Position numbers and translations under genes: made by a program. From an uncultured Alphaproteobacteria bacterium (GTDB lineage: Bacteria > Pseudomonadota > Alphaproteobacteria > Rs-D84), in NCBI GenBank assembly GCA_944389645.1, contig CALXMZ010000023.1:7445-71444 (forward strand): 64,000 nt of DNA, given 5' to 3'. The notes beneath the pieces are model-generated. The model was not told the origin of the DNA. It searched no databases and was given only the letters and a program-made list of their open reading frames with translations. Numbering within the stretch: the stretch's first letter is position 1; every line of letters begins with the position of its first letter. Shown here piece after piece: positions 11,695 through 61,517 of the stretch.

Positions 11695-11736
11695 TTTCAT
11701 ATGAAATATCACGTATCGTTTTGATTTTAGTGTATT

Positions 11737-12651: not shown

Positions 12652-12834
12652 GTTTTAGGTATAGTAAACAATTTGAAGTTTGTCAAATAAATAATAAATC
12701 ATATTTCATATGAAATTGTTTGTAATACGTTGTTTTTAGTAATGTTTTTGCGTGTGCAATATATTTGTCTTGACTGGTTAAGTCGGTTTTTATATGCTAA
12801 AAATGTTGTTTTTATTTATTTGGGAAAGGGAACG

Positions 12835-14550: not shown

Positions 14551-14967
14551 TTATTTTACGGTTGTTGTTGCATTACGATTCCATTTCCAGACTTCTTCTC
14601 CGGACCCCTGAACTAACGGACGTTCTTTACCGTAAGAAATTGTGGAAATACGTTTAGAATCTATACCATCTTTTACCATTACGCTTTTAGCAGCATTAGC
14701 ACGACGTGCACCTAGCGCTAAATTGTACTCAACAGAACCACGTTCGTCGCAGTTTCCTGCAATCTGTATTTTGGTGTCTGGATGGTTTTTCATATATAAA
14801 GACTGACCTAAAAGATTGTCACGTGCTTCGTCAGATATTTCAGACGAATTAAATGCAAAGAATACTCTTTGATCGTTTAAATCTGCTGGTTCAACGATGC
14901 TGGAACCACCGCACGCGGCCAACATGCTTGCAACGCCAGCTAATATAGCAAAGTTTTTTATTTTCAT
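14551..14967 (-). CDS. pal: peptidoglycan-associated lipoprotein Pal (OmpA domain)
   Basis: Lipobox MLAAC-GG and OmpA-like C-terminus NCDERGSVEYNLALGARRANAAK. Confidence 0.85.
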   Translation of the reverse strand: MKIKNFAILAGVASMLAACGGSSIVEPADLNDQRVFFAFNSSEISDEARDNLLGQSLYMKNHPDTKIQIAGNCDERGSVEYNLALGARRANAAKSVMVKDGIDSKRISTISYGKERPLVQGSGEEVWKWNRNATTTVK

Positions 14968-24144: not shown

Positions 24145-24792
24145 ATGAAAAAGTTATTAGCAGGTTTAATGATAGTTTCTATGTTAAGCGCATGTGCAAC
24201 AGTAAATCCTTATACTGGGGAAGCGCAGACATCAAAAGCGGTATGGGGGACGGCAATTGGTGCCGCAACTGGTGCTGCGACGGGCGCATTAGTTTCAAAT
24301 AATCATGGTGCAGGTGCGTTGGTTGGTGGTTTGGCCGGTGCAGCAATCGGTGGCGGAGTCGGTTATTATTTAGATGTACAGGAAGCAGAATTGCGTCAGG
24401 AATTGGCTTCAACGGGCGTAAGTGTTATTCGTGACGGTGATAGCATTCGTTTAATTATGCCTGGTAATATTACATTTAAGACGGATTCAGCAGATATAAA
24501 TGCAGGTTTCTATTCAACGTTGAACTCTGTTGCAAAGGTATTAAATAAGTATGACAATTCAACAGTAATGGTTTTAGGTTATACAGATAGCACAGGTAGT
24601 GCAGAATATAATCAAACATTGTCTCAACAGCGTGCAAATGCGGTTGCTGCATACTTGCAAGGGCAGGGGGTAAAGGCATCCAGATTTGAGATTATGGGGC
24701 TAGGTTCATCTAATCCAATAGCTTCTAATTCGACAGCCGAAGGTCGCCAGCAGAATCGTAGAGTAGAAATAAAAATTATTCCAAACAAATAA
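24145..24792 (+). CDS. OmpA-family lipoprotein with a glycine-zipper domain
   Basis: Lipobox LSAC; Gly-zipper GTAIGAATGAATGALV...GGLAGAAIGGGVG; OmpA C-terminal domain (GYTDSTGSAEYNQTLSQQRA). Confidence 0.8.
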   Translation: MKKLLAGLMIVSMLSACATVNPYTGEAQTSKAVWGTAIGAATGAATGALVSNNHGAGALVGGLAGAAIGGGVGYYLDVQEAELRQELASTGVSVIRDGDSIRLIMPGNITFKTDSADINAGFYSTLNSVAKVLNKYDNSTVMVLGYTDSTGSAEYNQTLSQQRANAVAAYLQGQGVKASRFEIMGLGSSNPIASNSTAEGRQQNRRVEIKIIPNK

Positions 24793-42665: not shown

Positions 42666-42816
42666 AAATTTTGTATTTCCTAATTTATAATTTAATAAAA
42701 TTCTGATATAATATATCACAATGGTTGAAAAGTTCAAGATTTTATCAGCTGGTGGTACGTCTAAAGGTTTGAATATATTCAAATCTAGCGCATATAAAGA
42801 ACATCAGCGGAAACCA

Positions 42817-44940
42817 ATGGCGCAGATATTTTGGTCACTGCGTTGGGCTATTGGTATTTGGCTTGTATGTGCGCTGGCTTTTGCGTTGTCTTTCATTATA
42901 GAGCATATTTGGAGATATGGTTGGTCACCAGCAACTACAAAATGGACGCTTCTTTATTTGCACAATATGTTGTCTACAGGTGGATTATCTGTGCTTGCAG
43001 AGATTCCAGATTGGATAACGAGATCTGTTATGCGCACAGATCTAGCTTGTATGATGCCATTGATACCTATAATTGCTTATTATTTTATGGCGGATACAAC
43101 GTTGGTTAAAGAGTTTAATCCTTATGGCAAGGATAAATTTACGGAAAAATCTTCTAATAAGGCAACGAAAGAAGATATAGAAAAGATGGGGTTGTTTAAG
43201 GGTTTTATGATGGTTCTTGGGTATTTTAAAAAGAAACCATTGATGATGAATGAGTGTTTGTCGGCTTTATGCGTTGCTCCTCCGGGGACTGGTAAAACAT
43301 ATGGTGTAGTATTACCGACTATTTTTGACTGTAATACGGTATCAATGATTATAAACGACCCTAAACCAGAATTAAAACAAGTTTCATCTGCGTATCGTTC
43401 AACTGTTGGACCTGTGTTCATTATGAACTGGGCAGGTCAAGACGATCCAGAACGTGGTATATATTATCCGTCTTGGAACCCTTTATCACCAGAACATGTA
43501 CCGTTTGATACGGAACAGAGGGATTTATATATAGATTCTATATGTAATGTATTAGTACCAGACGTAGCGTCTTCTTCTGCTGACCCGCATTGGACTATAT
43601 CCGGTCGTGCTGGTTTATCTGGGTTAATCCAATTTATCGTATCAAAGGTAGAACGGGCTCGTGCAGATGATTATTTTTATTCACGAATAACTTCGGGGAC
43701 GTTTGATGAAGAGGACGCAGCTGTTTTATCAGATTATTATTTATCTATGATGAATGATCCAAATGCATTTGCTGCGCTTGCGTTATTGCAAAAAGGCGAA
43801 TTAAACGCGACTAATTATGTTCATATCGGGACTTGGGAAAAAATACCAGAGGCATGGGTGGGCAAGGAAGCTTCTTTATCCATGATTTTAGATTGGTTAA
43901 ATGCGAGTCAGATTAGTATAGCTCAGGATATGGAAGAACGGCGTCGTCAGGGGGATCAGATGGTTATGATGTCTGATCCGATGAAAGATTTATTTTTTAA
44001 TGCGGTAGAGGAAGCGCGTAATTACGCGTATGCACATAGATCTATCTTAGAATTGACTCAACTTGCGAATACACCTGATAAGGAACGTGGTTCAATTTTA
44101 TCAACTATTATGGCAGGGTTAGGTATATTCCGTAATGCTGCGGTTCGTAATAGAACAAGTCATTCTGACTTTCATTTTGAAGATTTACGTGGGTTAAAAG
44201 ACCCAAGTGACGGTAAAGTAAAACCAGTAACTGTATACTTGTCAATAAATATGGTTGATGCCCAAGCGTTGAATCCGATAACGGGGATATTTATTGAATT
44301 AATGAGTAATTATTTATTAGCAAATAGACCAGAATCTATTAATAATGGTAAGAAATTGGGGCCGTACCCTGTGTTGTTTGTATTAGATGAAATGCCGAAA
44401 ATGCAAAAGTTACAAGCCGTAATTCAGGGACCAGATCTTGGTCGTGGTCAGAAAATATCTTATTTGATTATAGGACAAGATCTACATCAGATTGCTGAAA
44501 AATATGGTAATGATGCGGCTGCGACTATAATATCTACGACTGCCGCGAAGATAGTTCTGCGTCAGAACGATCCTGATACGGCGAAACGTTTTTCTGACAT
44601 GATGGGTTATAAAATGAGCGTGAAGACAGTTAAGGGACCTGACGGTAAAGACAAAGAAGAAACGAAAGAAGAGTTATTATATACGCCAATGGATATAATG
44701 AAATTAGACGATAAAAAACAGCTTGTTATATTTCAGGGGTGGTACCATAGACCTATAGAAGCGGATAAACAAATGGCATTTAATGATCCTCGGCTTTCGG
44801 CTTATATGGCCATGGGTGAGTGCAGTCCATTACCGGAATTTCTGATACCTTCTCATCATGCGGCTTTGGGTTATACGGGTAAACCGAAAATATATATACC
44901 ACAAACGAAAGAATTAAAAGAAATAGAATTTATAAAATAA
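42817..44940 (+). CDS. virD4: type IV secretion coupling protein, VirD4/TraG family
   Basis: Two N-terminal TM helices; APPGTGKTYGVVLPTIFDCNTVSMIINDPKPEL (Walker A region); VLFVLDEMPKM (Walker B); C-terminal AAKIVLRQNDPDTAKRFSDMMG. Confidence 0.75.
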   Translation: MAQIFWSLRWAIGIWLVCALAFALSFIIEHIWRYGWSPATTKWTLLYLHNMLSTGGLSVLAEIPDWITRSVMRTDLACMMPLIPIIAYYFMADTTLVKEFNPYGKDKFTEKSSNKATKEDIEKMGLFKGFMMVLGYFKKKPLMMNECLSALCVAPPGTGKTYGVVLPTIFDCNTVSMIINDPKPELKQVSSAYRSTVGPVFIMNWAGQDDPERGIYYPSWNPLSPEHVPFDTEQRDLYIDSICNVLVPDVASSSADPHWTISGRAGLSGLIQFIVSKVERARADDYFYSRITSGTFDEEDAAVLSDYYLSMMNDPNAFAALALLQKGELNATNYVHIGTWEKIPEAWVGKEASLSMILDWLNASQISIAQDMEERRRQGDQMVMMSDPMKDLFFNAVEEARNYAYAHRSILELTQLANTPDKERGSILSTIMAGLGIFRNAAVRNRTSHSDFHFEDLRGLKDPSDGKVKPVTVYLSINMVDAQALNPITGIFIELMSNYLLANRPESINNGKKLGPYPVLFVLDEMPKMQKLQAVIQGPDLGRGQKISYLIIGQDLHQIAEKYGNDAAATIISTTAAKIVLRQNDPDTAKRFSDMMGYKMSVKTVKGPDGKDKEETKEELLYTPMDIMKLDDKKQLVIFQGWYHRPIEADKQMAFNDPRLSAYMAMGECSPLPEFLIPSHHAALGYTGKPKIYIPQTKELKEIEFIK

Positions 44941-46543: not shown

Positions 46544-47206
46544 TTAAAAACCTTTCGGTGTATCCATTTTTACTTTTGATATTTTTTTATCTAAAGCAGA
46601 AACGATTTCTTTTGTTATATCAAGATTTTCTGCTGTTTTACCTGTGCGAGCAAATCTTCCGTCTATAACTAAAGATAAGTTCTTTTTTTCTATTACGCCT
46701 TCGATAATCGGATCCAAGTGCTTAGACTGTATCTCGTTTAACGCCTTTTGGTATGAGATTTCTATGCTTTGAGCCCGTTCTGCCAAATCACGTTGTAGCT
46801 CTGTTACGCGATTTTGATAATCTACCACCCGACGTTGTAACGCATCACGAGAAAGTACATCTTGTGACTTTTCAATTTCAGCTTTTTCTTTTTCTAAATC
46901 TTTCTGTTTTTTTTCTAATTCGTCACGAAGTTTATTTTCATAAGATTCTTTCTGTTTTTTTAAGTCTTGTAATGCAGAAGCTTCGTTTTGTATTTCATCC
47001 ATACGAATTACGGCTATACGTAAATCTGCACCATTTACCGCGTCTGTTGTAATTACTTCCATAGCTTCTTCAACAGATGCAGTTTTTTCTGTGCGTGACG
47101 CACTTATAACCCAAATACCAAGTGCCGCAACGATGATAACGATTGCTGCAATAATCCCAGTTTTTTTATAATTTTTAACTGCGGACTTATCAGATGATTT
47201 AACCAT
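46544..47206 (-). CDS. skp: periplasmic chaperone Skp/OmpH
   Basis: N-terminal anchor/signal, coiled-coil-rich 220 aa, synteny upstream of lpxD. Confidence 0.75.
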   Translation of the reverse strand: MVKSSDKSAVKNYKKTGIIAAIVIIVAALGIWVISASRTEKTASVEEAMEVITTDAVNGADLRIAVIRMDEIQNEASALQDLKKQKESYENKLRDELEKKQKDLEKEKAEIEKSQDVLSRDALQRRVVDYQNRVTELQRDLAERAQSIEISYQKALNEIQSKHLDPIIEGVIEKKNLSLVIDGRFARTGKTAENLDITKEIVSALDKKISKVKMDTPKGF

Positions 47207-47283: not shown

Positions 47284-47961
47284 TTATCTAGCAGGAGCCA
47301 ATTTAATTTCGACTCTTCTATTAGTTAGTCTTCCTATACTATCTTGGGCTGCGATAGGTCTTGTTGCCCCGCGACCGACGATAAACATTCTTGTCGGGTT
47401 TATGCCGTGCTGCGATAGGTATACACCCACTCGTTGAGCCATGTCTAAAGATAATGCTTTTGCAGCCTGTTGGTTCCCCATAGCATCTGTATAACCTGCG
47501 ATTTCTATAAATGTTGCATCGTATTTATTAAGAACTTTTGATATTATTTTTAATGTATCTGCACCTGTTTCTGATATATCAGCAACGTCTTGCTTCATGA
47601 TTGCATCGCGAATAAGTATTATTACAACTTCTGTCCCAGCTCTTTGAACAGATAGCCCAGGTTTTCGTAAAGAATCATACAATTCATATTCAAGGTCGGA
47701 CATATAATTTATGCTAACTGAATTGTCGTTTGCAATTTTATCGCCATATTCCATATTTTTTGTTTTTGTATTATTTGTTACAAGTTGCCCACCGGCACCT
47801 AAATATACAGGACGTTTTGCAATACGAGAAATCTCGTTCATATCCGTAAAACTTGCCCCATTTAAATAATTACCCCAAGTTGAACGATCAGGACTATGAT
47901 AATAAAAGCAGCCTGTTAATAATAAAAATGTACACAAAAAGATAATTTTATTTTTATACAT
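47284..47961 (-). CDS. OmpA/MotB-family peptidoglycan-binding lipoprotein
   Basis: Lipobox LLTGC; C-terminal IAGYTDAMGNQQAAKALSLDMAQRV...NRRVEI. Its ATG overlaps the pilin stop (TAATG). Confidence 0.75.
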   Translation of the reverse strand: MYKNKIIFLCTFLLLTGCFYYHSPDRSTWGNYLNGASFTDMNEISRIAKRPVYLGAGGQLVTNNTKTKNMEYGDKIANDNSVSINYMSDLEYELYDSLRKPGLSVQRAGTEVVIILIRDAIMKQDVADISETGADTLKIISKVLNKYDATFIEIAGYTDAMGNQQAAKALSLDMAQRVGVYLSQHGINPTRMFIVGRGATRPIAAQDSIGRLTNRRVEIKLAPAR

Positions 47962-48419
47962 TATTCAACTATAAAAGAAATTTTGTTTGTATCTGTTGAA
48001 AAGCAGTTCGTGTTTATATTTGTTTCTATGTCGTTTATTATTACTTTACTTGCCCAAGAATATTTTGCGGTAGCAAAATACTGACATTCTCCTTCTGATA
48101 AACCTGTTAAATTGATAGAGAAAGTAGATGTATCGCTTAACGGTTCTACGCTCCAATCAGAATCCCCAATAGGAGCTTTCTTCGTTTTTAAAGCACCAGC
48201 ATCGATCAAATAATCTAAAGATAAACCTGTATAATCTCCTTTTATTTTCATTAATATTTTCACATCTTTTGCAATTTGTTCTATTTGCATAGAAGCGATT
48301 TTTCTTTCCTGATTATTTTTTATTACGTTATATATACTTATTGCGCTTGCACTCATGACGCCAGCAATTGCTAAGACGCCTATTACTTCCAGTAATGATC
48401 TTCCGTATTCTTGTCTCAT
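47961..48419 (-). CDS. type IV pilin / pseudopilin-like protein (prepilin N-terminal cleavage/methylation domain)
   Basis: MRQEYG|RSLLEVIGVLAIAGVMSASAI: G-1, E+5 and a hydrophobic alpha1 helix. 152 aa with a C-terminal Cys pair (C...C). Confidence 0.7.
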   Translation of the reverse strand: MRQEYGRSLLEVIGVLAIAGVMSASAISIYNVIKNNQERKIASMQIEQIAKDVKILMKIKGDYTGLSLDYLIDAGALKTKKAPIGDSDWSVEPLSDTSTFSINLTGLSEGECQYFATAKYSWASKVIINDIETNINTNCFSTDTNKISFIVE

Positions 48420-48428
48420 TTTATACCT

Positions 48429-49970
48429 TTATTTTGATACCCCAATAATTTCCGCGTCTTCAAATAAACTCATTGCGCTTGCTACTAGTGGGTCGGTTTC
48501 TATTTCTTTTTGCGTTTTTTCTGTCACAGTGTCTGTGTGATTTGATTCTTTCTCTTTTTCTAATACCCAATTTTTACCTGTTGTTTTTGATAACCATTCG
48601 GATAATTTATGTGGAAAATCTGCATCGTTTTTTCTATCAAAATATTTAATTTTTCCATCGGAAAACTCAATTACTTCTATATTACTACTATAATACGAGT
48701 ATAACAATATCTCCTTCGATTTCTGGAGTTCATTTGCTAAATCGTTTGCCGTTGTAATTTTAGCAGTTTGAGTTTGTTTTTGTTTTTCTTCTAAACCTAA
48801 AGTTTTTTCCGTATTTATTTTATTGTTATTTTGTTGTTTGATAATTTCTGGTATTGAAGGCATATCTGCAATGTGTATAAGTCTAATAACAAGCATATCA
48901 AAACATTGCTTTTGATTACTTGAAGATTGCATTTCTGAAACTGCTGCAACCATGACCTGCCAGATTCTTGATAAAGTATTTAAGGATATTTTTGCGTTTA
49001 TTTCTCGTATTTGTTGGCGCTGATCTGCCGTATATGGAGAAGTTGTAATTTCACCTGCTTTCAATACTGGGTGCATACGCGTCGCCCAATGCGTCCATTC
49101 CATCATATCGTTTAGTAACATGACAAGATCGGCACCGTTATTATAAATAGTGTCAACTTTTTCTAATGCAGCGGAAGTATCACCGGATAATAATGTTTTC
49201 ATAAATTCAACTACAACGCCACGATCTGTGCGTTTTAACATATCAAGAACCGCCTTTTCGTCAACGTGACCACCTGTTTGAGCAATTGCTTGGTCTAATA
49301 ATGATAAACCGTCTCGAACGGAACCATCTGCAGCTCTTGCGAGTAAATCATTTGCTGTATCTGATAATTCAATATTTTCTTGTTCTGCAATCCAAGAAAA
49401 ATGTTTTTTTAAAGTTTCAACGGGTACGCGAACTAGATCAAACCTTTGGCATCTAGATAAAATTGTTACAGGAACTTTTCTTATTTCTGTGGTTGCAAGA
49501 ATAAAGATTACGTGGGCAGGTGGTTCTTCAAGAGTTTTTAATAAAGCGTTAAATGCACTTGTTGAAAGCATGTGTACTTCGTCAATTATGTACACTTTAT
49601 AGCGTCCGTTCGTCGGTCTGTATTGTGATGCGTCTAAAATATCGCGCATATTGTCAACGCCCGTATGTGAAGCAGCGTCAATTTCTAGGACGTCTATGTG
49701 CTGACCTGCTGCAATAGCCCGACAGTTTTCGCACATTCCGCATGGTTCTGCCGTTGGACCATCAGAAGAAAGACAGTTTAAAGCTTTTGCAAGTATTCTT
49801 GCAGTGCTCGTTTTCCCCGTGCCACGTATACCCGTGAAAATATATGCGTGTGCTATACGGCCCGTTTTTATTGCAGTAGTTAATGTCTTTACTAAAACGT
49901 CTTGACCGATAAGCCCCTGAAAATTCTGACTACGGTATTTTCTTGCTAAAACTGTATAATTACTACTCAT
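48429..49970 (-). CDS. dnaX: DNA polymerase III subunit gamma/tau
   Basis: AHAYIFTGIRGTGKTSTARILAKALNC and zinc module CGMCENC. Confidence 0.95.
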   Translation of the reverse strand: MSSNYTVLARKYRSQNFQGLIGQDVLVKTLTTAIKTGRIAHAYIFTGIRGTGKTSTARILAKALNCLSSDGPTAEPCGMCENCRAIAAGQHIDVLEIDAASHTGVDNMRDILDASQYRPTNGRYKVYIIDEVHMLSTSAFNALLKTLEEPPAHVIFILATTEIRKVPVTILSRCQRFDLVRVPVETLKKHFSWIAEQENIELSDTANDLLARAADGSVRDGLSLLDQAIAQTGGHVDEKAVLDMLKRTDRGVVVEFMKTLLSGDTSAALEKVDTIYNNGADLVMLLNDMMEWTHWATRMHPVLKAGEITTSPYTADQRQQIREINAKISLNTLSRIWQVMVAAVSEMQSSSNQKQCFDMLVIRLIHIADMPSIPEIIKQQNNNKINTEKTLGLEEKQKQTQTAKITTANDLANELQKSKEILLYSYYSSNIEVIEFSDGKIKYFDRKNDADFPHKLSEWLSKTTGKNWVLEKEKESNHTDTVTEKTQKEIETDPLVASAMSLFEDAEIIGVSK

Positions 49971-50492: not shown

Positions 50493-51848
50493 ATGCAAAG
50501 GCAGAGTGGGAGTTTTTTATTACAGGCTTTGCTAGCTTTGGCTTTAATTTTTGCTTTTGTCCCGTTTTTCGCTCAGAAACTTGTGTCCAGAGATATTGAT
50601 GCTCAGATGTATTCTTCTACGCAAAAAGTAGAAACGGCTCAGACGGCGGCTAGAATTTTTATACAAGAACATGCTAATGATTTACCGTATAATACGACCG
50701 TTTTTTATGGTGAAGGTTTTTCAGATTTGTTAGAACCGTATGGTTTACCGCTGGGTTTTGTACCTCGTACTGCTTTAGGTCAAGATATTTCTTTGGTTGT
50801 TACGAAAAATGCTAATTCAGTGACGGCATATTTAAGATTAAACGGTGGGGATTTAAATAAAATGCAATTAGCTGAGTTAGTTCGGCGTATAGGTTTTTAT
50901 GCGTCTTTATCTGGTGATGAAATAATAGTCGGTTTGGGGTTAAATGAGGTTTATTCTGACGTTGTAAAAAGGAACGATAAAAATTTAGATGATAATGCTT
51001 TTTTAACGGATTTGAATATGGGCGGTTTTAGTCTTAATAATGCTGGCGATGTTTTTGCGCGTCGTGGTGAAATAGAAACGGGGCAGATTAACACCTTGTC
51101 TTTGTTCGGAGAGGAAAACGGTCGTAAGGTAAAAAATTCTATAGAGTTTTTGATATCAGAAAAAAGCGTTTTTCAGAGTCCTACAGGTGAAGCCGCGTTA
51201 TCATTATCTCGTGGTACGTTGTTAGTTGGTACTGTAAACGCTAAAACCGTATCGAAATTTGGTGATGCTGGAAATTTTACTTCTAATTCTGCATCTGTAT
51301 ATGATTTTGCTATGACTGCGGGTAGAAACAGTTTTTACGGCCCAGCCGATTGGTATGTCGGTGGAAGCGTAATTACTGATAATATTAATTTTAGTTTAGA
51401 AAGGTTGGAAATAAATTCTTATTTAAACGTTTCAAGGGGGCAGGACGTTTACATTGATCCGGATAGTTTAGAATATAGCACAAGAAGTGGTATAGAGGTT
51501 AGCAATATTTATGCATCAAATATAACGATGAGAGATCAGACTTCAGATGCTCTTAATGACGGTGAAACGGGAGCGATAATTTTAGATATTAGACCTGCGG
51601 GTACATCTTTGTTACCAGACGTGCTTTTGGATTCTATTGATAATTCTAGTTTTAAAATAATTAGTAAACCAGAAGCAGATACTTCTGACACAATAGATTG
51701 TCGATCTATAATAAATAAATTAGACGGTAACTACAATCAAAAATCTTTATCTCAGTATATAATATGTCAGTACGTATTTTGGCAAAGATTAGAAAAGCGT
51801 ATAAACATAAAACAGTGTTTAATGGAAGGTAAAAGTGGTTGCTTGTGA
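50493..51848 (+). CDS. giant pilin-like protein 1 (prepilin-type N-terminus with Q at +5; large C-terminal domain)
   Basis: MQRQSG|SFLLQALLALALIFAFVPF. 451 aa. Central LTDLNMGGFSLNNAG motif is shared with the two downstream paralogues. Confidence 0.7.
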   Translation: MQRQSGSFLLQALLALALIFAFVPFFAQKLVSRDIDAQMYSSTQKVETAQTAARIFIQEHANDLPYNTTVFYGEGFSDLLEPYGLPLGFVPRTALGQDISLVVTKNANSVTAYLRLNGGDLNKMQLAELVRRIGFYASLSGDEIIVGLGLNEVYSDVVKRNDKNLDDNAFLTDLNMGGFSLNNAGDVFARRGEIETGQINTLSLFGEENGRKVKNSIEFLISEKSVFQSPTGEAALSLSRGTLLVGTVNAKTVSKFGDAGNFTSNSASVYDFAMTAGRNSFYGPADWYVGGSVITDNINFSLERLEINSYLNVSRGQDVYIDPDSLEYSTRSGIEVSNIYASNITMRDQTSDALNDGETGAIILDIRPAGTSLLPDVLLDSIDNSSFKIISKPEADTSDTIDCRSIINKLDGNYNQKSLSQYIICQYVFWQRLEKRINIKQCLMEGKSGCL

Positions 51849-53031
51849 TATAAGATTTTTATCTAAAGAATCGAATGGTGCTAGCGTGCTAGAAGTATTA
51901 TTAGCTATGGCGATAATAGCTATGGCTACACCATTTGTTTATGACCATGTATCAGAGACGAATATGGCGTTGAAAGATATGGCAGAAGCAAAAAAAATAA
52001 TTGCTTTGCAGGACGACGTATTAAATTTTGTTCGATTGAACCAAGGTAATTGGCCAGAAGTTGCACAGATAAAACTATCTGAAGAAGAGCTTGATAGTAT
52101 ATCTGAAAAACCTTCTGTGTGTTTCGTTGATAAATATGTAATAAATGGAGGAAGCGTCACAGACGTTTATTTATCTTTTGATTTAAAAGATACGCAGTTA
52201 AGGGTATCGCGGATTGCAAAGCATATAGGAGCAGATGCGGCTGTTGTAGGTCTAGATGGTGTTGCGTATGGTGATTCTTGGGCAGTTGCGGCGCCAGAGT
52301 TTAAATATGGTGATTTGATATATAGAATATCCAAAGATATAGACGGTGAAGATAAAACGAAATATTTACATCGTACGGGTATGGGTGATGAGAATTTAAA
52401 CATGATGTTGCGTGATTTAAATATGGGGGGGAATAATATATTTAATGTTGGTGGTGTACAGTCAAAAACTTTAGAAATAAGGAACCTTGCGACACAATTT
52501 ATAGAAGTTGGTAACATAATGTCCGATGCAATATATTTTTCTTCTGGGGCTACTTTATACGGTGATACGGCCAATATAGAAAATTTGCGGGTAACAGGAG
52601 ACGTTTCGGGTTTTCGTAATATTTATGCTGATACATTAAACGGTGAAAAGTATACCACTAGGGGAAGTATAATAACGGATAGAGCCACAATAAATAATTC
52701 AGTTAATATATCGAATAATTTTATTTTAAAATCTGATGAAGCAAGAACGATAAGTGGTTTTACCGGTATAATTGCACATTCTGTAGATACTTCTTCAATT
52801 TCTGCAGAAGAGATCGTTTTTTATGAAGATTTTGGTTTAACGGTATCTGGGGAATTGTTGATGTCTACGACGGCTCCATTAAGAATTGGTAGTTGGACGT
52901 TTCCTTCTCTTACGCCACCTTCTTTTTATTATCTGGAGCTAAGTAGGGCAAAAATTCCAAGTCTTCCACCGGCAAATGAATTTGGTATAATTTTATCAGA
53001 AGGATGGCAGACGGCTGTACCCAAGGAATAA
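51835..53031 (+). CDS. giant pilin-like protein 2 (prepilin-type N-terminus, E at +5)
   Basis: ...SKESNG|ASVLEVLLAMAIIAMATPF; motif LRDLNMGGNNIFNVGG; 398 aa; GTG start overlapping gene 1. Confidence 0.65.
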   Translation: MVACDIRFLSKESNGASVLEVLLAMAIIAMATPFVYDHVSETNMALKDMAEAKKIIALQDDVLNFVRLNQGNWPEVAQIKLSEEELDSISEKPSVCFVDKYVINGGSVTDVYLSFDLKDTQLRVSRIAKHIGADAAVVGLDGVAYGDSWAVAAPEFKYGDLIYRISKDIDGEDKTKYLHRTGMGDENLNMMLRDLNMGGNNIFNVGGVQSKTLEIRNLATQFIEVGNIMSDAIYFSSGATLYGDTANIENLRVTGDVSGFRNIYADTLNGEKYTTRGSIITDRATINNSVNISNNFILKSDEARTISGFTGIIAHSVDTSSISAEEIVFYEDFGLTVSGELLMSTTAPLRIGSWTFPSLTPPSFYYLELSRAKIPSLPPANEFGIILSEGWQTAVPKE

Positions 53032-53033
53032 AT

Positions 53034-54356
53034 ATGAAACTATCAAAGTTTAAAAAATTTTATAAGGTAAAAGAACAATGTGGTAGCATGTTGATTGAGC
53101 TATTAATGAGTGTTGCTTTAGCCGCCGTAATTATGCCCTTTATTTTTAGATATCAAAAAAATGCAATTGTCAGAGCAGAAAATATAACGATTGCTCGTCA
53201 TATGGAGAATATTCAGAGTGCGCTGGAACGCTACATTTTTGAAAATAGAGAGGTTTTATTAAATACTGTAGGAAAAAATATTACAAGAGTAAATATTTCA
53301 GATTTGGTAGATTATGGTATTCCGATAGATTTTATTAATGAGTCAGGTAAAAATTATCAATTAAGAATTCTGAAATCGAATGATATAGATGGTAAGGCCA
53401 CGTTACAGGGGGTAGTGGTTTTTTCTTCCGAGGACGTTTCTCCATTAAGAACGCGTGAAATAGTTGCTTTAGGAGGGGATTCCATGGGGATCATAGAAGG
53501 TAATCGTGCTTATGGTACATTTGGTGCATGGCACGCAGACACGGTAGATCTAGGAGTAAACGTTGCTGGTGGTATAGTAGAAACAACGGCTGTTAATCGT
53601 GATAATGATTTATATTTATGGCGTGTACCATCTGAAAAGGATTCTGATGCGACAATGTTAACTGGTTTAAATCTGGGTGGGCATAACATAAAAGATACTT
53701 ATCTTTTCGGAGCTTCTTCGGTACAAATTGATGAGAATTTGGTTGCTGGTGCAATTGTAGCAAAGGATACGATATTTCAAAATAGAGTTACGATAGATAA
53801 AAATTTTGAAACAACGAATGCTACTGTATCGGGGATTTTATCGGCAGATTCTAGAACGTTAGAGGTTGTAAAAAGTTTTAATTTAGATGATACGGCAAAA
53901 TTTTCAAGTTTTACTACGAATGATTTGTGGGTAAATAATATGACGTTAGGTGGTCTTTCTGTTTATACAGAAGACGGTGGTCCATCTGTATTGAAAGTTA
54001 ATAATTCAATAGATATGACGGATGGAAGAATAGATGCGATGTATGTTACAGTTGGTTTTACAGGTTCTATTACTCCTAGGTTAGTAGTTTCGAATAGAAT
54101 AGAAGATTCTATTAATTCAAATTATTTTTGGGACGCAAGTATGAGGGAAGCTAAATTTTTTGATGTTTCTTTACAAGAATTGAATCGTATGGCAAGTGAA
54201 GTTGTTTATATTGAATCTGGGAAAAACACAGAATCTGGTAAATTATTTGAAGCTGTATCTATCAATAAAAATGCAACGGTTTCAGATTATATAAATGTGA
54301 TACAAGAAATCCAAAATAATGTAACTGTAAAATATAGAAAGTTGAATTTGGAATAA
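53034..54356 (+). CDS. giant pilin-like protein 3 (prepilin-type N-terminus, E at +5)
   Basis: ...KEQCG|SMLIELLMSVALAAVIMPF; motif LTGLNLGGHNIKD; 440 aa; AAGGAA RBS. Confidence 0.7.
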   Translation: MKLSKFKKFYKVKEQCGSMLIELLMSVALAAVIMPFIFRYQKNAIVRAENITIARHMENIQSALERYIFENREVLLNTVGKNITRVNISDLVDYGIPIDFINESGKNYQLRILKSNDIDGKATLQGVVVFSSEDVSPLRTREIVALGGDSMGIIEGNRAYGTFGAWHADTVDLGVNVAGGIVETTAVNRDNDLYLWRVPSEKDSDATMLTGLNLGGHNIKDTYLFGASSVQIDENLVAGAIVAKDTIFQNRVTIDKNFETTNATVSGILSADSRTLEVVKSFNLDDTAKFSSFTTNDLWVNNMTLGGLSVYTEDGGPSVLKVNNSIDMTDGRIDAMYVTVGFTGSITPRLVVSNRIEDSINSNYFWDASMREAKFFDVSLQELNRMASEVVYIESGKNTESGKLFEAVSINKNATVSDYINVIQEIQNNVTVKYRKLNLE

Positions 54357-54375: not shown

Positions 54376-54876
54376 ATGAAAACAGTATGTGACTTTTGTA
54401 AAACAGAATATTCGTTGGAATCTTTTCCGAAAGGTGCGGTTAAATGTGCCGTATGTGGTAACGTTTGGACGGTTGTAAAACCCATAAGGAAGAACGCTTT
54501 TTTGACTTTTATAGCAGCATTGTGTGCGTTACTTGCAGCAATTGTTTTTGCTGTTGTAGCTGTTACGAAGCATCAGATAAATGTAATAGAAAAAGAACCG
54601 TTAGTTGCAGAAATTCAAGAAATAAATACGATAAACGATGAAAATGGGAGGGAGCGTTTCGTTGTAAGTGGAATTGTTCGTAATCGTTCTGAGCATATTT
54701 ATGGGGCTCCGAACCTTATAATAAATACATATGATGAAAATGGTAAAATAATAGACAGACAGAAATTTTTACCTCCTGCAACGTTATTAGATTCTGGGTC
54801 AGTTGTAAACTTTGGGCATATTTTATCTGTGCCGACTCAGAACGTAAAAAAAATTTCGGTTGAGTTAGAAAATTAG
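54376..54876 (+). CDS. MJ0042-type zinc-ribbon / DUF3426-like membrane protein
   Basis: MKTVCDFCKTEY...VKCAVCGNVW (two CxxC) followed by a TM (FLTFIAALCALLAAIVFAVVAV) and a periplasmic domain. Confidence 0.65.
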   Translation: MKTVCDFCKTEYSLESFPKGAVKCAVCGNVWTVVKPIRKNAFLTFIAALCALLAAIVFAVVAVTKHQINVIEKEPLVAEIQEINTINDENGRERFVVSGIVRNRSEHIYGAPNLIINTYDENGKIIDRQKFLPPATLLDSGSVVNFGHILSVPTQNVKKISVELEN

Positions 54877-54885: not shown

Positions 54886-55386
54886 ATGAAAAAGTCGTTA
54901 CTATTTATTTTCTGTGTTCATTTTTGTTTGTTTAGTGCTTTTGCGGCTGAGCATAAACCTAGAATACAGCCGCAGCAACCGCAGCAGCCACAACAGCCGC
55001 GCATAAGTATATTTTCGACAAGTACTGACTGGGAGGGGCTTACAGGTTTGTCGTATCATGAGTATCATGGTAAAATTACTCCATCTACGAATCTTGTAGG
55101 TAATAAGGGTTTGGTATTGTATTACTTAGATGGTTTTCCTTGTTACGGGCTAGGCGAGGGTGTTAGAGTTTGGTTGGGGCCGAATGATAAACATGATGGA
55201 GAGCTTCGTATTGCATGTATTTATCCGCCAAAAGAAATAAAATTCACATGGAGAAACGCAACTCGTGATGCAGACGAAGCTGTTAGTACTGGTTTGTTGG
55301 TATGCTCAGTTGAAGACGATGGCAGAGAATTAAAAATAAATTTATCGGATTGTAAAAAAGGTGAAAACTGGGAAGATTATAAATAG
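54886..55386 (+). CDS. secreted hypothetical protein with a PQQ tripeptide repeat
   Basis: Signal peptide; PQQPQQPQQP; 6 Cys. Confidence 0.55.
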   Translation: MKKSLLFIFCVHFCLFSAFAAEHKPRIQPQQPQQPQQPRISIFSTSTDWEGLTGLSYHEYHGKITPSTNLVGNKGLVLYYLDGFPCYGLGEGVRVWLGPNDKHDGELRIACIYPPKEIKFTWRNATRDADEAVSTGLLVCSVEDDGRELKINLSDCKKGENWEDYK

Positions 55387-56433: not shown

Positions 56434-56459
56434 GACTCAATAAGTATGGAGTGAGTCTA

Positions 56460-59400
56460 ATGAGTCTTCTAAAAAAAACGATTGGATTTTTAGCTGTTTG
56501 TAGTGCATTACCAGAAGCTTTTGCTTTAACTGCACGTCCCAGTGTTATTGGTAATGCATCAATGCGTATGCCGACTATGACGGCATATAATTCAGGAAGT
56601 ACGTCTTCGACAACGACATCAAATTTGTTGGAAAATTCAGAATGTATAGATGCGTATACCAGTTGCTTAAAGGGTAGTGATGTTTGTGGAAATGATTTTG
56701 AGGAATGTACAAACAAAACTTTGTTTTTTTCTAAAAGACCATTGTGCTCAAGTACTTTATTGCAATGCAGTACTTCTGGTATAAATGCGTTGTTCGGAAC
56801 CAGCAACCAAACATTGTTTGCGAATAAAGATTCTGATGATGAGTATGTTTATCCTACAGATGGTAGTGTATTGGGGCAGTTGATAGAAGCAGCTTCAATT
56901 AGCAATCGTTATGATACAAGTACGTGCGTTAAAAGGTATACAAGTTGTTTAACAAAATCTGACGTTTGCGGTTCTGATTTTGAATTATGTACAAGTAATA
57001 CAGAATTTAAGAAACAAAAATTGTTTTGTGAATCTACGTTAGCTCGTTGTCAGTCAGAGGGGATTCAAGAGTTATTTGGTACAACAAGTACTGCATCTAA
57101 CCCCACAAGTAACAGTCGTATAGGTATAATGATTTCAGAAGGTGCTGCACTTGCGGCAGTAAACGCAGTTTCTACTTGTTATAAAGTTATTGATCAATGT
57201 TTCTTAAATGCCTGTGCTACGAACCCGTATAAGTGTAAAGAAGGGAGCTCACAAGAAATTATAAAATATGTAGAAAATGTAAATAATACAGATGGTACTT
57301 TGATAAGTACGGCGACAAATGATCTAGTTCAAACTACAATTAGTCGTAACGAAGTTTCAGGGTTTATAAAAAATTCGTGTTTGGATACGATAGGTTCAAA
57401 TAAATATTGTTATGCCACGTTTTTGGGGAACGGAGTAATGCCTTCGAATGCGCAGTTGCGTGATGCGGATAATCAAGATGAAATTTATTCTGAAGCATAT
57501 TCTTCTAGAATGAACGATTCTATGCGTGCAAAAATAGATGATTTAATAGAACAATTTGACAAAAAAGTTAAAGAGCGTTGTTCTGAAACCATTGTTTCTT
57601 GTGCAATGCGTGCTTGCGGTGAAGGAAGTGGAGCTGCATGTTATGCTTCTGCTTTTAATAGTGCTAATAAAGTAAAAGGTGTTACAAATCCTTCTACTAT
57701 GGAAGGTATAAAATTAGGTTGTGAAGCTTCTGTAAATAATGATACTGCTTGTCAATATGCTGCAGCTACATTTGATACTGCAACTGGGGCTTTAATATTT
57801 GAAGAAAATAGTTTGTTTGATAAATTATTTACTGCTCCGGATGATACAGATGCTAAAAATCCAGATCCTGTTGGTGCGGTTGCAACTTTAAACGCAAGAT
57901 TATCTACTTCTTATAATCAGGCAGCTTTAGATCAGATGAAAAAGCAATGTCAATCAATTGCGACAAGTTGCGTTAAATCTATGTGCGGAACAGATTATCA
58001 AAATTGTTATCGTAATCGTACGGATATATATTCTACATTAACAAACACAGGTAATGATAATTTTGATAAAAGTATGAACAAGGTTGGTGGCGTGTTAGAT
58101 CATACGATTGTTTTAGGATTGTGCTTAAATACTGTTAAAAATAATTCTGTATGTGAAGAACATATAAAAGCTGAAATGGCGAGGAGTTCCGCAAATTCTT
58201 CTTATAATGTTAATTCTTGGGGAAGCGGTATAACAAGTGCCAGAGAAGGTTGGTTGGATGCCGGTAATTATAGCATTACTGCAGAAGTTCAAGATATCGA
58301 TGCTGATGGGAATTTATTATGTACTACTGCAGAAAACGGTGATGGTGTAGAGGGGCGTTGCGATGATGCCAGTGGACAATATATATATCCAAAGATGGTT
58401 TCTCAGACAACGTACGCAGAAAATCTTGCTGAAAGACAAGTTTTTCGTGATTTGATTTCGGATTTGGAAATGGAAGCTCAGGCAAAATATAATGCGAAGT
58501 TAACTAAACAACAGAATATGTGTATGTCTGGTAATGCTGGTGGTATAATCGGCAATAAAGACATGGGCAGTACATATATGTGGGTAAAACTTAAAAATAA
58601 TAAGATACCTTCAAATTATACGGTTAACGGTCTAACTTCTGATAGTTTCGTTGCAAGTAACGATTTGTATGGTTCATTCTGCCGTATACGTATAACAATA
58701 CAATCTGATGATAAAACGATACAGGAAGCTATACGTGCTGGAACGGATTGGGCGACGGCTTATTTTGCAGCAGGTGATTCATTTACTTGTGGAAGCTGGA
58801 TACCTGCAAGCGTATTAAATACTTTAAGTCAATCTGTAGGGGATGCTGCAAGAGCAGATGCTAAAGATTCTCAAGTCAGAGCGTTGCAGTGGATTATGCC
58901 CTTAATAGGTACTGTCGGTGGTACTGTTGGTGGTGCTTACTTAGGAAGCGGTATTCAACAGGGTAAAATTTTATCCGGCTTAACAGGTAAATCTAATAAT
59001 TCTAACAGCTCCAATGTTAACAAAGAAACTTTGAGTAAAAATTGTCAGGATTCATTAACAGAAGCTAAGTCAAATGCCAATAGCGGTGATATAAATACGT
59101 TAAATAGAAATACTCAGCTTGCGGTTGCTTATGCAAAAGAATTGGGGGTTCATCAAGACTATTTGAATGATTTGACAACTGCTTATACAAAAATGAGTTC
59201 TGTTTATAATAATCAGGGTGAAATGAAAGATGATGAATATTCTAAAGCCAAAGAAGATGCAAAAACAGATTATTTAAATAAGTTAGAAGATTTAAATTCT
59301 CAGTGTAAGATATATGCTATATCTGAAGATTCGTCAAATAAGGATGATAAACAACACAAAGTTGCGACAGGTGTAGGTGCGGCTGTTGGTGGTGTCTTGG

Positions 59401-59573
59401 GTGGTGTATTAACTTGGGGAATTACCAATACTATTCAAGAATCAAAATTAGATTCCGCAGAGCGTGCCGCAATAGATGAATGGATGGCCAATGTCGGTAA
59501 TCATATACGTTGCTACATCGGAGCAGATGAAATCGGAGTATATGGTGATACCATAAGTACAAGTATGGAATAA
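56460..59573 (+). CDS. large secreted cysteine-rich protein (about 1037 aa) with an internal 94-aa tandem repeat and two glycine-zipper hydrophobic segments
   Basis: Signal peptide ...CSALPEAFA. Repeats ECIDAYTSCLKGSDVCGNDFEECT... and TCVKRYTSCLTKSDVCGSDFELCT.... GTVGGTVGGAYLG and GVGAAVGGVLGGVL segments. Confidence 0.7.
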   Translation: MSLLKKTIGFLAVCSALPEAFALTARPSVIGNASMRMPTMTAYNSGSTSSTTTSNLLENSECIDAYTSCLKGSDVCGNDFEECTNKTLFFSKRPLCSSTLLQCSTSGINALFGTSNQTLFANKDSDDEYVYPTDGSVLGQLIEAASISNRYDTSTCVKRYTSCLTKSDVCGSDFELCTSNTEFKKQKLFCESTLARCQSEGIQELFGTTSTASNPTSNSRIGIMISEGAALAAVNAVSTCYKVIDQCFLNACATNPYKCKEGSSQEIIKYVENVNNTDGTLISTATNDLVQTTISRNEVSGFIKNSCLDTIGSNKYCYATFLGNGVMPSNAQLRDADNQDEIYSEAYSSRMNDSMRAKIDDLIEQFDKKVKERCSETIVSCAMRACGEGSGAACYASAFNSANKVKGVTNPSTMEGIKLGCEASVNNDTACQYAAATFDTATGALIFEENSLFDKLFTAPDDTDAKNPDPVGAVATLNARLSTSYNQAALDQMKKQCQSIATSCVKSMCGTDYQNCYRNRTDIYSTLTNTGNDNFDKSMNKVGGVLDHTIVLGLCLNTVKNNSVCEEHIKAEMARSSANSSYNVNSWGSGITSAREGWLDAGNYSITAEVQDIDADGNLLCTTAENGDGVEGRCDDASGQYIYPKMVSQTTYAENLAERQVFRDLISDLEMEAQAKYNAKLTKQQNMCMSGNAGGIIGNKDMGSTYMWVKLKNNKIPSNYTVNGLTSDSFVASNDLYGSFCRIRITIQSDDKTIQEAIRAGTDWATAYFAAGDSFTCGSWIPASVLNTLSQSVGDAARADAKDSQVRALQWIMPLIGTVGGTVGGAYLGSGIQQGKILSGLTGKSNNSNSSNVNKETLSKNCQDSLTEAKSNANSGDINTLNRNTQLAVAYAKELGVHQDYLNDLTTAYTKMSSVYNNQGEMKDDEYSKAKEDAKTDYLNKLEDLNSQCKIYAISEDSSNKDDKQHKVATGVGAAVGGVLGGVLTWGITNTIQESKLDSAERAAIDEWMANVGNHIRCYIGADEIGVYGDTISTSME

Positions 59574-59593: not shown

Positions 59594-59619
59594 AAAAACC
59601 GCCTTTAAAGGCGGTTTTT
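59594..59619. terminator. hairpin terminator with A-run/T-run flanks (potentially bidirectional)
   Basis: aaaaaccgcctttaaaggcggttttt. Confidence 0.65.
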
Positions 59620-61405
59620 ATCTATATCCACGTGAATTTAATTTATTCTTTAAGAAATTTATTTTAGCAATAATCGTATTATAGTTTGGGGTTTTATAAA
59701 ATAGATTTTTTGAAATTTCGTCAATTATTTTATATACCTGTTTTGAAGAATAATTGTTTAATATGAAGTATAAATCTTCCCAAGATTGATATAAAATCGT
59801 GTTCAATATTTTCTTTTCTTCGGTTTTTCTGTTATAAGCTTTTTTATTTATCGTGATTGCACCTACGTCTATTATTGTGTTGCCAAAGCGATTACGAATT
59901 TCATTAAAGTCGTACAGACTAAAAAATTTAAACTGCATAAAATAATTTTCTGGTATTTTATCAATTTTACCATATACATATGGTTGTATTATATATCTTT
60001 CACCTCGTTGTGTGCTAATCCCTGCAGTAAAGATTTTATTGAATTTTATTTTCCCCATATATTTTTTCCCAGATAATAAAAAGGAATTTTGAGTTATTGT
60101 ATCATGTGCCCATGTACTTATATATTGATTATCTCTATCAGAATGATAAGTTTTCCACACATACTTTTGACCGTTTATAAATTTTATTACATAATTTTTT
60201 GTAAAGTTTCCAGAAGATAGATATTCTATCTTTGCTTTCTTTCCCGTGATTTTTAATATATCCGCTTCTAATTTTTCTATTGCTTTTTTTACGCAGTCAA
60301 TAGTGTGCAAATTATTTTCTGTTGTATAAGTTTTTATACTGGCTCTGCGAAAAGCTTGGTGTAAATCGGTGGTCGCTTTTTTTATATTAGAGCTAGGCAA
60401 TCCTTTTAACCATTCGTATGGAAAGCAGCCGGGGTTTTGGTAACCTTGAAAAGCCATTTCAGATAGTTCCATAAAGCTTACCGGATGTCTCTTTAGCAGG
60501 TGCGTTGTTTTTTTCTTTACTTCTGTATAAGATTTGTTTCGTGAAAAAATCTTTTTTATTAATTTCTCAATGGAAACACCATGTAATTCAAAAGTATCAA
60601 TGCTTGCATAAGGGTATTTGGATAGCATAAAGTCAAGATTTTTTATAACTACAGGTAATATCTTTGTATAGTTTCGTAATTTTTCTCTGGTTATATTGTT
60701 AATTTTGTTTTCTTCCGATAATGTTGCATTTAAAGAGTTAAATAGGATGTTTTCTATTCTATAAATATGCTTAAATTTCTCGTGTTTTGTTTTATAAAGC
60801 CATAAATGGTGTTTAAATTCATTAATTATAATATCTTTTTTGGCTTTGTTGATAGCTTCTCTTAAAGATAACCCTGTATATGTAAAATCTTTTATTTTTA
60901 TTGCATAATAAGTGCTACCACAGATATCTGTCTTATTAAAGTTTAAACGTTGTAATTCAATTATATTAATTCCGAATAAAGTACGTTTTGATTTTTCATA
61001 AAAACACATGTTTGCATATTTACCTATATTAAAAGTTTTTTGTCCGTTTTCTGTGTTTTTTATGATTGTCTTTAAATTGTTCGTTGCGAAAGGAGACCAC
61101 AATAAAATACTGCACCAATTACTTGGTATTTGTATTTTTTTTACATTAAAACAATTTGAGAAGGCATCGGAATTTACGTTTTTTATAGTTTCTCCGAAGA
61201 ATATTTCTTCTAGATTATGATTGTTGCAAAATACTTTATTTGATATTTCTGTTAAAGAATCTGGGAAAAAAATTTTTTTTAAGTTTTGTAAACCTTCGCC
61301 TACATTAGGAGAAATGCTTTTTACCGTATTTGGAATATAAAGTTCACCATCTTTCGTGAGATCTGAATCATTTATTGATATAAGAACGCCATTTTCTATT
61401 ATCAT
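59618..61405 (-). CDS. hypothetical protein with N-terminal BspA-type leucine-rich repeats; very low GC
   Basis: YIPNTVKSISPNVGEGLQNLKKIFFPDSLTEISNKVFCNNHNLEEIFFGETIKNVNSDAFSNCFNVKKIQIP. 595 aa, no signal peptide, K/N/I-rich. Confidence 0.6.
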   Translation of the reverse strand: MIIENGVLISINDSDLTKDGELYIPNTVKSISPNVGEGLQNLKKIFFPDSLTEISNKVFCNNHNLEEIFFGETIKNVNSDAFSNCFNVKKIQIPSNWCSILLWSPFATNNLKTIIKNTENGQKTFNIGKYANMCFYEKSKRTLFGINIIELQRLNFNKTDICGSTYYAIKIKDFTYTGLSLREAINKAKKDIIINEFKHHLWLYKTKHEKFKHIYRIENILFNSLNATLSEENKINNITREKLRNYTKILPVVIKNLDFMLSKYPYASIDTFELHGVSIEKLIKKIFSRNKSYTEVKKKTTHLLKRHPVSFMELSEMAFQGYQNPGCFPYEWLKGLPSSNIKKATTDLHQAFRRASIKTYTTENNLHTIDCVKKAIEKLEADILKITGKKAKIEYLSSGNFTKNYVIKFINGQKYVWKTYHSDRDNQYISTWAHDTITQNSFLLSGKKYMGKIKFNKIFTAGISTQRGERYIIQPYVYGKIDKIPENYFMQFKFFSLYDFNEIRNRFGNTIIDVGAITINKKAYNRKTEEKKILNTILYQSWEDLYFILNNYSSKQVYKIIDEISKNLFYKTPNYNTIIAKINFLKNKLNSRGYR

Positions 61406-61517
61406 GAATAGGAATTTTAGACATGTTTTTTATTTTGTCAATTATTTTTTTGTGCTTTTTTAATTTTTAACTTTTGTATATATTTTTTTTGTGTTAGAAT
61501 TAATTTTAAGAGAGAAT

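Follow-up and report, generated by a model that had tools for sequence, protein, structure and literature searches.

The window analyzed here is a whole stretch of 64,000 nucleotides (positions 7,445 to 71,444 of contig CALXMZ010000023.1, assembly GCA_944389645.1) from an uncultured alphaproteobacterium, and the gene under study encodes a small protein that begins like a type IV prepilin and whose stop codon overlaps the start of a gene for an OmpA-domain lipoprotein. The explanation favored in this work, to which a probability of about 0.72 is assigned, is that the product of this open reading frame (ORF), 152 residues long, is a functional type IVb-class pilin, the machine for its assembly being encoded elsewhere in the genome. 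This reading draws on the conservation of the gene, on the predicted fold of its product and on the assembly genes found in a congener. Coordinates refer to window positions unless a locus is named, and arrows within sequence motifs mark cleavage sites.

47961..48419, minus strand, prepilin gene (ORF, 152 aa), type IVb-class (PilS/bundlin-like)

Conservation of the prepilin gene

The protein starts with MRQEYGRSLLEVIGVLAIAGVMSA, in which a leader of 6 aa, MRQEYG, with a predicted cut at G6↓R7, is followed by RSLLEVIGVLAIAGVMSASAI, leaving a mature protein of 146 aa. The features of a class III signal are all present, namely Gly at −1, Glu (E11) at +5 and a hydrophobic helix next, and a pair of cysteines (Cys112 and Cys139) is found toward the C-terminus. 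The prepilin-type leader with its Glu at +5 and the C-terminal Cys pair, both described in the initial annotation, were confirmed. None of the four residues G6, E11, C112 and C139 varies among 31 orthologs or among 65 distant relatives, and this, together with the pilin fold reported below, bears out its view that the protein is truly a type IV pilin.

When one genome was scanned for each species, relatives of the pilin were identified in 181 GTDB species, and the best 80 of these 181 (51–74% pilin identity) constitute the set behind all counts given out of 80. They are metagenome-assembled genomes (MAGs) named Candidatus Enterousia or 'Alphaproteobacteria bacterium', recovered from the guts of humans, chickens, ruminants and horses, and one forms a circular chromosome 958,618 bp long; copies of the pilin identical to that of the window occur only on short gut-metagenome contigs. 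The source of the window is thus named here as Candidatus Enterousia (order Rs-D84, Alphaproteobacteria), a gut bacterium. Genomes of Rs-D84/Enterousia stay below 1 Mb, without respiration and with most biosynthetic pathways and the standard transporters missing, and for Rs-D84 a life in dependence on partners has been suggested (PMC12306168).

The pilin gene is under strong purifying selection, with dN/dS values of 0.04–0.09 between close species. That the ORF arose by chance or is an annotation artefact was ruled out by conservation and dN/dS, since there are 81 close homologues of ~152 aa, relatives in 181 species and the low dN/dS just mentioned. The invariance of Gly−1 and Glu+5, combined with purifying selection, is an indirect sign that processing and assembly still operate. 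Glu occupies +5 in all 79 Enterousia orthologs having the motif, and the residue at +1 is Arg in 61 and Ala in 18 of the orthologs of this genus.

An exhaustive profile search retrieved 1,058 cluster representatives of the pilin family, and a second database search at least 7,984 clusters, nearly all named members coming from 'Alphaproteobacteria bacterium' MAGs. Judged by sequence, the pilin belongs to a very large and mostly unnamed family with the hallmark SG↓RSMIEMLGVLAI, in which at least 90% of the 65 distant relatives (22–34% identity) have Arg at +1, and likewise Ser at +2. The Arg at +1, initially considered unusual, is consequently the common residue both in this wider family and among the Enterousia orthologs. 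Scans of viral_contigs with the Enterousia ATPase described below and with the pilin family returned no matches.

Predicted fold and pilin class

Structural modelling, which had been proposed along with the initial annotation, produced an AF2 model (pLDDT 81) with a pilin fold, in which an N-terminal helix spanning residues 5–60 (56 residues) packs on an antiparallel β-sheet of 4 strands. In a Foldseek search against the PDB the top 16 matches were all type IVb pilins (TcpA, CofA and the PilS of S. Typhi), with E 7e-5 and a TM of 0.68 for TcpA, while sharing merely 12–19% sequence identity with the window protein. Significant structure matches were to pilins only, and no type IVa pilin was present among the 50 Foldseek matches listed. 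A profile of the family, compared with PDB sequences, matched geopilin (1.5e-4) and TcpA (6.5e-3).

Family models were matched by part of the relatives. Pfam PilS was matched by 15 of the 31 orthologs, and N_methyl by 15 of the 31 at E ≤ 0.01. The ortholog from the locus of isolate KA0024-133 (L133) clears the PilS cut-off (24.1 vs 22) and has been named 'type 4 pilus major pilin' by NCBI. Among the 65 distant relatives, PilS was found in 40 (best E 3.9e-19) and Bundlin (PF05307) in 33. A residue other than Phe at +1 is one criterion of type IVb pilins, and the window pilin carries Arg there. On the basis of the predicted structure, the protein is assigned to the type IVb (PilS/bundlin/TcpA) structural class.

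Assembly genes in a congener and in related gut bacteria

The L133 locus has the following gene order. Reading leftward, it contains the three large pilins, Zn, p166 and rluD; reading rightward, it contains p99, dnaX, the pilin, the lipoprotein, skp and then, directly after skp, genes of the families PilO (PF06864), PilP (TIGR03021), T2SSE ATPase and T2SSF platform. The same order is repeated in three more independent assemblies (L176–L178), making four in total, all of one species. Among the genes called within 10 kb in this species, the only ones for pilins are those of the 152-aa protein and of the three large proteins, so that no other small pilin was found in that range. Because L133 and L176–L178 encode it, the genus possesses the PilO–PilP–ATPase–platform machinery. 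Aligned from end to end, the L133 ATPase shares 34% identity (E 1e-78) with its counterparts in type IVb clusters carried by E. coli plasmids; further products of those clusters are a TcpQ-domain protein, a secretin, PilO2, an A24 peptidase and a lytic transglycosylase.

The Enterousia pilus ATPase (L133 12880..14511) shows GPTSSGKST as its Walker A motif, where GPTGSGKS/T is usual; a PilB Walker A regular expression misses it, and phmmer was used instead. Its identity to the ATPases that other alphaproteobacterial MAGs encode is only ~53% (120 matches listed), and those are 55–87% (mostly 62–69%) identical to the ATPase of another locus, L092, when this serves as the query. By sequence comparison, the Enterousia protein is placed on a fast-evolving branch.

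At L092, four pilins of the G↓RSMIEMLGVLAI family are encoded in tandem, along with PilO (PF06864), a PilP-like protein and the T2SSE ATPase and T2SSF platform. With its ATPase as query, two further gut alphaproteobacterial loci were found, L094 and L095, whose genes follow the order unknown protein of 590 aa, TcpQ-like protein, secretin, PilO, PilP-like protein, ATPase, platform and two or three pilins, and whose secretin reaches the cut-off of TIGR02520 (PilN). These operons are type IVb pilus operons of the R64/PilL-V kind. In L094 (444..2854) and L095 (1..2593) three virB2/trbC genes, joined in L095 by virB4, point away from the pilus operon. A neighborhood of pilus and type IV secretion genes recurs in the window and in L094/L095, as on IncI plasmids.

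The context of the wider family was examined in 79 metagenome loci. A T2SSE ATPase lies within reach in just 2 of them, the other 77 being orphan in this respect. In ~40 of the 79, no pilus ATPase is near and the gene immediately following the orphan pilin (~155 aa) encodes an RluD-like pseudouridine synthase, a conserved association with a housekeeping gene (loci L016–L063; e.g., L061 10001..11469 and L012 10001..11447).

Gene order, junctions and transcription

The genes and the junction immediately around the pilin are as follows.

48429..49970, minus strand, dnaX (Pfam families on identical contigs), its end 9 nt upstream of the pilin start
47959..47963, minus strand, TAATG junction, where the pilin stop TAA (47963..47961) and the lipoprotein ATG (47961..47959) share base 47961
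47284..47961, minus strand, outer-membrane-type lipoprotein, 225 aa, YiaD-like, with lipobox LLTG↓C and a C-terminal OmpA-like domain
46544..47206, minus strand, skp (OmpH-like periplasmic chaperone; Pfam OmpH 60.8 bits), 77 nt downstream of the lipoprotein

As lpxD and fabZ come after skp, the window ORFs and their Pfam families agree with the placement of the pair between dnaX and skp-lpxD-fabZ given in the initial annotation, and the overlap of stop and start codons can be read in the sequence. The gene ybaB is located, as had been indicated, at 23479 (PF02575, 55.9 bits). No bamA, the gene whose usual position before skp the pair was thought to occupy, was found in the window by Pfam scans of most ORFs of at least 110 aa and reading of the rest by eye.

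Counting the genes found within 10 kb of the pilin, the neighborhood is conserved to the following extent.

dnaX and lipoprotein, adjoining the pilin, 80/80 species
three large pilin-like proteins, 72–76/80 species
two 166-aa proteins and rluD, 70/80 species
skp, 66/80 species
lpxD-fabZ, 37/80 species
virD4, 31/80 species

The order dnaX-pilin-lipoprotein is present in 80/80 species and is therefore ancestral to the genus, so that the description of the pair as inserted at this site does not hold. The tight juxtaposition of pilin and lipoprotein is borne out: counted to the first in-frame ATG, the distance between pilin and lipoprotein is 0 nt in 43, −1 in 10, −4 in 5 and 1–9 nt in 17 of the 80 species, and in four of the five species with a gap of 49–124 nt a TTG within one base of the stop is the likely start.

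A scan of the minus strand revealed no terminator-like site in the dnaX-pilin-lipoprotein junctions, the sole one (49321–49309) lying within dnaX, and dnaX and the pilin are probably part of the same transcription unit. The same scan gave a minor excess of terminator-like sites that does not involve the pilin junctions, and 14 promoter-like sites as compared with 15.0 ± 3.8 in shuffled sequence, that is, no excess, which makes the promoter scan uninformative.

The large pilin-like proteins and other features of the window

Some 2 kb away from the pair, three larger genes encode proteins with pilin-like N-termini, followed by two genes for proteins of 166 aa; a coupling protein gene lies on the other side.

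50493..51848, plus strand, 451-aa pilin-like protein, N-terminus MQRQSG↓SFLLQ, Gln at +5, in 76/80 species
51835..53031, plus strand, pilin-like protein of ~398 aa (start codon uncertain), ...NG↓ASVLEV, E at +5, weak GspI N-terminal match
53004..54356 (start 53004 or 53034), plus strand, pilin-like protein of ~440–450 aa, ...CG↓SMLIEL, E at +5, weak geopilin N-terminal match
54376..54876, plus strand, 166-aa protein with N-terminal zinc ribbon and one transmembrane helix, DUF3426-like (weak Pfam matches)
54886..55386, plus strand, 166-aa secreted protein with signal peptide and PQQ repeat (weak Pfam matches)
42721..44940, plus strand, VirD4-type coupling protein (T4SS-DNA_transf, 165 bits), adjoining fabZ, 3 kb from the pilin pair

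The initial annotation had also pointed to these giant pilin-like proteins, and their class III N-termini turned out to be conserved across the genus. The 451-aa family reads G↓NFLLQ, with Gln at +5 in 68/69 orthologs, the ~398-aa family G↓(A/S)SMLE, with E at +5 in 72/72, and the ~440–450-aa family G↓SMLIE, with E at +5 in 71/71. The 451-aa and ~450-aa families are paralogues (hhalign probability 94.5%). None of the three proteins has a Pfam match, and profile searches of the PDB with the 451-aa and ~450-aa families recovered only the N-terminal helix for one and nothing for the other. Tip or initiator minor pilins such as GspK do not have Glu at +5, and by analogy the 451-aa protein, with its Gln, is a candidate tip or initiator minor pilin. 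The two 166-aa proteins, which come after the large pilin genes in 70/80 species, are possible unrecognised pilus accessory proteins. A motif L(T/R)DLNMGG..(I/L).N, located ~170–200 residues in and followed by long repeat-like regions, is common to the three large paralogues; it may resemble motifs of phage tail-fibre proteins.

Further along, downstream of rluD, a 1,040-aa Cys-rich protein (56451..59573, plus strand) has a signal peptide, Gly-rich hydrophobic C-terminal segments and no Pfam match, and occurs in 62/80 species. A BspA-type leucine-rich-repeat protein of 595 aa (59618..61405, minus strand) and a low-complexity protein of 667 aa (61491..63494, plus strand) are candidate surface or host-interaction proteins. 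The presence of gidB-parA-parB at 11134..14486 places the window near the chromosomal origin, and the cumulative GC skew climbs over its entire length.

The coupled lipoprotein

The product of the second gene was initially described as an OmpA/MotB-like lipoprotein with a canonical OmpA peptidoglycan-binding domain. The OmpA domain is indeed there (Pfam PF00691, 57.1 bits, cut-off 27.2, residues 125–210), but it is not fully canonical: where the peptidoglycan-binding motif EYN..LS.RRA is expected the lipoprotein reads QAAKALSLDMAQR, with Ala in place of the Asn and Met in place of the Arg, while the Asp of the TD motif is retained (D158). The Asn and Arg of this motif contact diaminopimelate in OmpA/Pal structures. 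All 40 lipoprotein orthologs compared have M173, and at least 90% of them have A166; across the same set the protein is 62–76% identical, being more conserved than the pilin. The MotB-like label has to be dropped, since the N-terminus is a lipoprotein signal with a lipobox and MotB-family models score 43–51 bits, far below their cut-offs of 250–283; the protein is of the YiaD type, its best NCBIfam match being YiaD (NF053611, 104.5 bits, residues 58–221, below the cut-off of 175). The window contains two other OmpA-domain proteins, which carry the canonical motif.

24145..24792, plus strand, glycine-zipper YiaD-like OmpA-domain lipoprotein, reading EYNQTLSQQRANA at the motif
14551..14967, minus strand, short Pal-like OmpA-domain protein, reading EYNLALGARRANA at the motif

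How this protein relates to the pilus is a matter separate from the nature of the pilin. There is an even chance that it is an ordinary YiaD/Pal-like envelope tether that belongs with skp-lpxD-fabZ, in which case the pilin would be real and the pair would not form a functional unit. This would fit its best family match and the envelope functions of skp, lpxD and fabZ, as well as the fact that dnaX, functionally unrelated, abuts the pilin just as closely (9 nt). In addition, no OmpA-type neighbor was found among the loci of family pilins outside Enterousia, only ortholog L015 having one, and the R64-type operons are likewise devoid of an OmpA-domain gene. Kinship with the 590-aa protein encoded by the first gene of the L094/L095 operons was also tried and rejected, as hhalign showed no similarity. 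Moreover, genes are packed closely in genomes with a coding density of ~90% (PMC12306168), and because juxtaposition alone in such a genome says little, it provides only weak evidence for a link between lipoprotein and pilus.

This explanation has to accommodate, however, a juxtaposition of at most 9 nt held in most of the 80 species at 51–74% pilin identity, and the existence in the window of canonical YiaD-like and Pal-like proteins, next to which the lipoprotein would be a third copy without the Asn and Arg. Because the replacements of these two residues are conserved, a specialised role is suggested. A functional tie to the pilus is thus a tentative proposal, somewhat on the doubtful side, within which the lipoprotein, probably co-transcribed with the pilin, may be an envelope anchor of the pilus machine.

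Proposed mechanism

If the 152-aa protein is a functional IVb-class pilin, a prepilin peptidase (A24) would cleave it between G6 and R7, and a PilO/PilP/ATPase/platform machine, encoded elsewhere in the genome, would polymerise the mature 146-aa protein, which is a plausible major subunit. The three large pilin-like proteins encoded 2 kb off would be minor, priming or adhesive subunits, the one with Gln+5 being the likely tip subunit. The filament would probably serve to attach the bacterium to partner cells or to cells of the host. It may act jointly with a Vir-type type IV secretion system, which the pilus might serve, by analogy, as the R64 thin pilus serves conjugation.

Evidence against this model and alternative explanations

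A number of observations weigh against a functional type IVb pilin assembled by a machine encoded elsewhere. With regard to class, the window pilin scores 20.3 bits (E 6e-4) with Pfam PilS (PF08805), below the cut-off of 22, and 13.4 bits, below the cut-off of 21.2, with N_methyl (PF07963), a model tuned to G↓FTLIE-type motifs. Its 6-aa leader and 146-aa mature size correspond to the type IVa range and not to classical type IVb pilins, with their leaders of 15–30 aa and mature lengths of 180–200 aa (PMC3927602). With regard to its status as 'major' pilin, a second small paralogue (P0332-like, 154 aa) seems to be present in some related genomes; furthermore, no separate promoter can be recognised for the gene, which starts 9 nt after dnaX, an odd arrangement for an abundant major subunit.

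With regard to the machine, no ATPase, platform, secretin or prepilin peptidase was found in the 64-kb window, as had been noted from the outset and was corroborated by Pfam on most ORFs of at least 110 aa, by reading the rest by eye and by phmmer of all ORFs of at least 50 aa with the PilO, PilP-like, ATPase and platform proteins of L092. Neither a secretin nor an A24 peptidase was seen in any Enterousia locus fetched, and the R64-type operons of L092, L094 and L095 contain no OmpA-type lipoprotein gene. Machinery lies within 10 kb of the pilin in merely 1 of the 80 species; this frequency approximates random placement in genomes of ~0.9 Mb, and the adjacency therefore shows the presence of the machinery in the genus and not its linkage to the pilin. 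Finally, a genome survey reports type IV pili for another lineage but not for Rs-D84 (PMC12306168).

Beyond the question of the lipoprotein, two other explanations of the pilin were considered. In the first, the 152-aa protein would be the major pseudopilin of a short pseudopilus, acting as a type II secretion-like piston or in DNA uptake. The small size of the protein and its short leader would agree with this, as would the lack of a secretin in the Enterousia loci seen, and a set of one major and three minor subunits, one of them without Glu+5, recalls GspG/H/I/J/K; DNA uptake would also pay for an organism unable to make nucleotides. Known type IVb systems can, in turn, secrete proteins (TcpF and CofJ), a fact likewise counted in favor of a secretion-type role. 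Nevertheless, the fold and the sequence family are those of a type IVb pilin and not of GspG, the disulfide-type Cys pair is conserved as in pilins, and the associated machinery is of the PilO2/PilP/PilN type. The minor subunits, with 400–450 aa and large non-pilin domains, look more adhesin-like, and the NCBIfam GspH and GspI matches are insignificant. Taken together, a pseudopilus is considered unlikely.

In type IV pilus systems it is common for the genes to be scattered, and this already counts against the weakest explanation, that of an orphan relic. Such a relic, inactive or re-used as a membrane protein once the assembly genes had been lost in genome reduction, might be suspected from the absence of machinery in the window and within 10 kb in 79/80 species, from the 77/79 wider-family loci that are orphan with respect to an ATPase and from the survey listing no type IV pili for Rs-D84, but it is made very improbable by a dN/dS of 0.04–0.09, by the absolute conservation, in every species, of Gly−1, Glu+5 and both Cys, as processing and assembly demand, by the lack of pseudogene build-up in Rs-D84 genomes and by the congener, whose intact PilO-PilP-ATPase-platform genes directly after skp argue against relic status (PMC12306168 for the survey and the pseudogenes).

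Comparison with known systems

The type IVb pilus assigned here to Enterousia is in itself of a known type, an ortholog of its pilin having already been named by NCBI. The thin pilus of R64/IncI1 and the related PilL-V systems (the pil locus of S. Typhi SPI-7 and clusters on plasmids and ICEs), with PilN as secretin, PilO, PilP, PilQ as ATPase, PilR as platform, PilS as pilin and PilV as large minor pilin, resemble it in the PilS matches of the pilin family. The congener has PilO, PilP, the T2SSE ATPase and the T2SSF platform in R64 order, its ATPase matching those from the type IVb clusters of E. coli plasmids over the whole length (34% identity); a PilN-family secretin and a TcpQ-like protein are found in addition in related gut MAGs. 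In R64 a large PilV accompanies the small PilS, just as pilin-like proteins of 400–450 aa accompany the small pilin here, and type IV secretion genes are near in both cases (virD4 in the window, virB2/virB4 at L094/L095). In contrast to R64, the Enterousia genes lie on the chromosome, scattered between housekeeping genes, the pilin has a leader of 6 aa and, when mature, 146 aa starting with Arg or Ala, and an OmpA-type lipoprotein is coupled to it. In addition, the three large minor pilins have no detectable similarity to the PilV/shufflon family (no Pfam match), and PilL, PilM, PilT, PilU and a secretin have not been seen in Enterousia loci so far.

The TcpA of V. cholerae, the CofA/LngA of enterotoxigenic E. 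coli and the BfpA bundlin of enteropathogenic E. coli are the best structural and profile matches of the pilin, and share with it a Cys pair delimiting the C-terminal region and a residue other than Phe at +1; Bundlin matches also occur in the 33/65 wider-family members mentioned above. They differ in being 180–200 aa long with leaders of 15–30 aa (PMC3927602), in their low identity (12–19%) and in the organization of their operons as compact virulence loci. As for the lipoprotein, it has the lipobox and the C-terminal OmpA-like domain of YiaD/Pal lipoproteins, with YiaD as best NCBIfam match, and departs from them in its score (104.5 vs a cut-off of 175), in the lack of a clear glycine zipper, in the replaced Asn and Arg and in being always coupled to a pilin gene.

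Implications for Enterousia and for the pilin family

A more far-reaching proposal is that Enterousia builds a stripped-down R64-like type IVb filament, with an Arg+1 pilin, three giant adhesive tip pilins and a non-canonical OmpA-fold lipoprotein that would replace or assist the secretin/pilotin module, and that this filament would hold partner cells for a Vir type IV secretion system. As a whole this is a long shot; if true, the filament would be a feeding or attachment organelle analogous to Patescibacteria pili.

The value of these findings lies mainly in annotation and in the biology of Enterousia. The G↓RSMIEMLGVLAI hallmark is useful for annotating a family that comprises at least ~8,000 clusters, mostly unnamed in public records. 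A pilus system is also revealed in a reduced-genome lineage for which a genome survey reported none (PMC12306168), and the literature searched on RF32, Rs-D84 and Enterousia gave no account of these pilins. Enterousia and other members of Rs-D84 occur widely in the guts of humans and animals, where partner cells are believed to sustain them, and the pilin, the three large minor pilins and the machinery (in one species) provide a concrete candidate for attachment to a partner or host.

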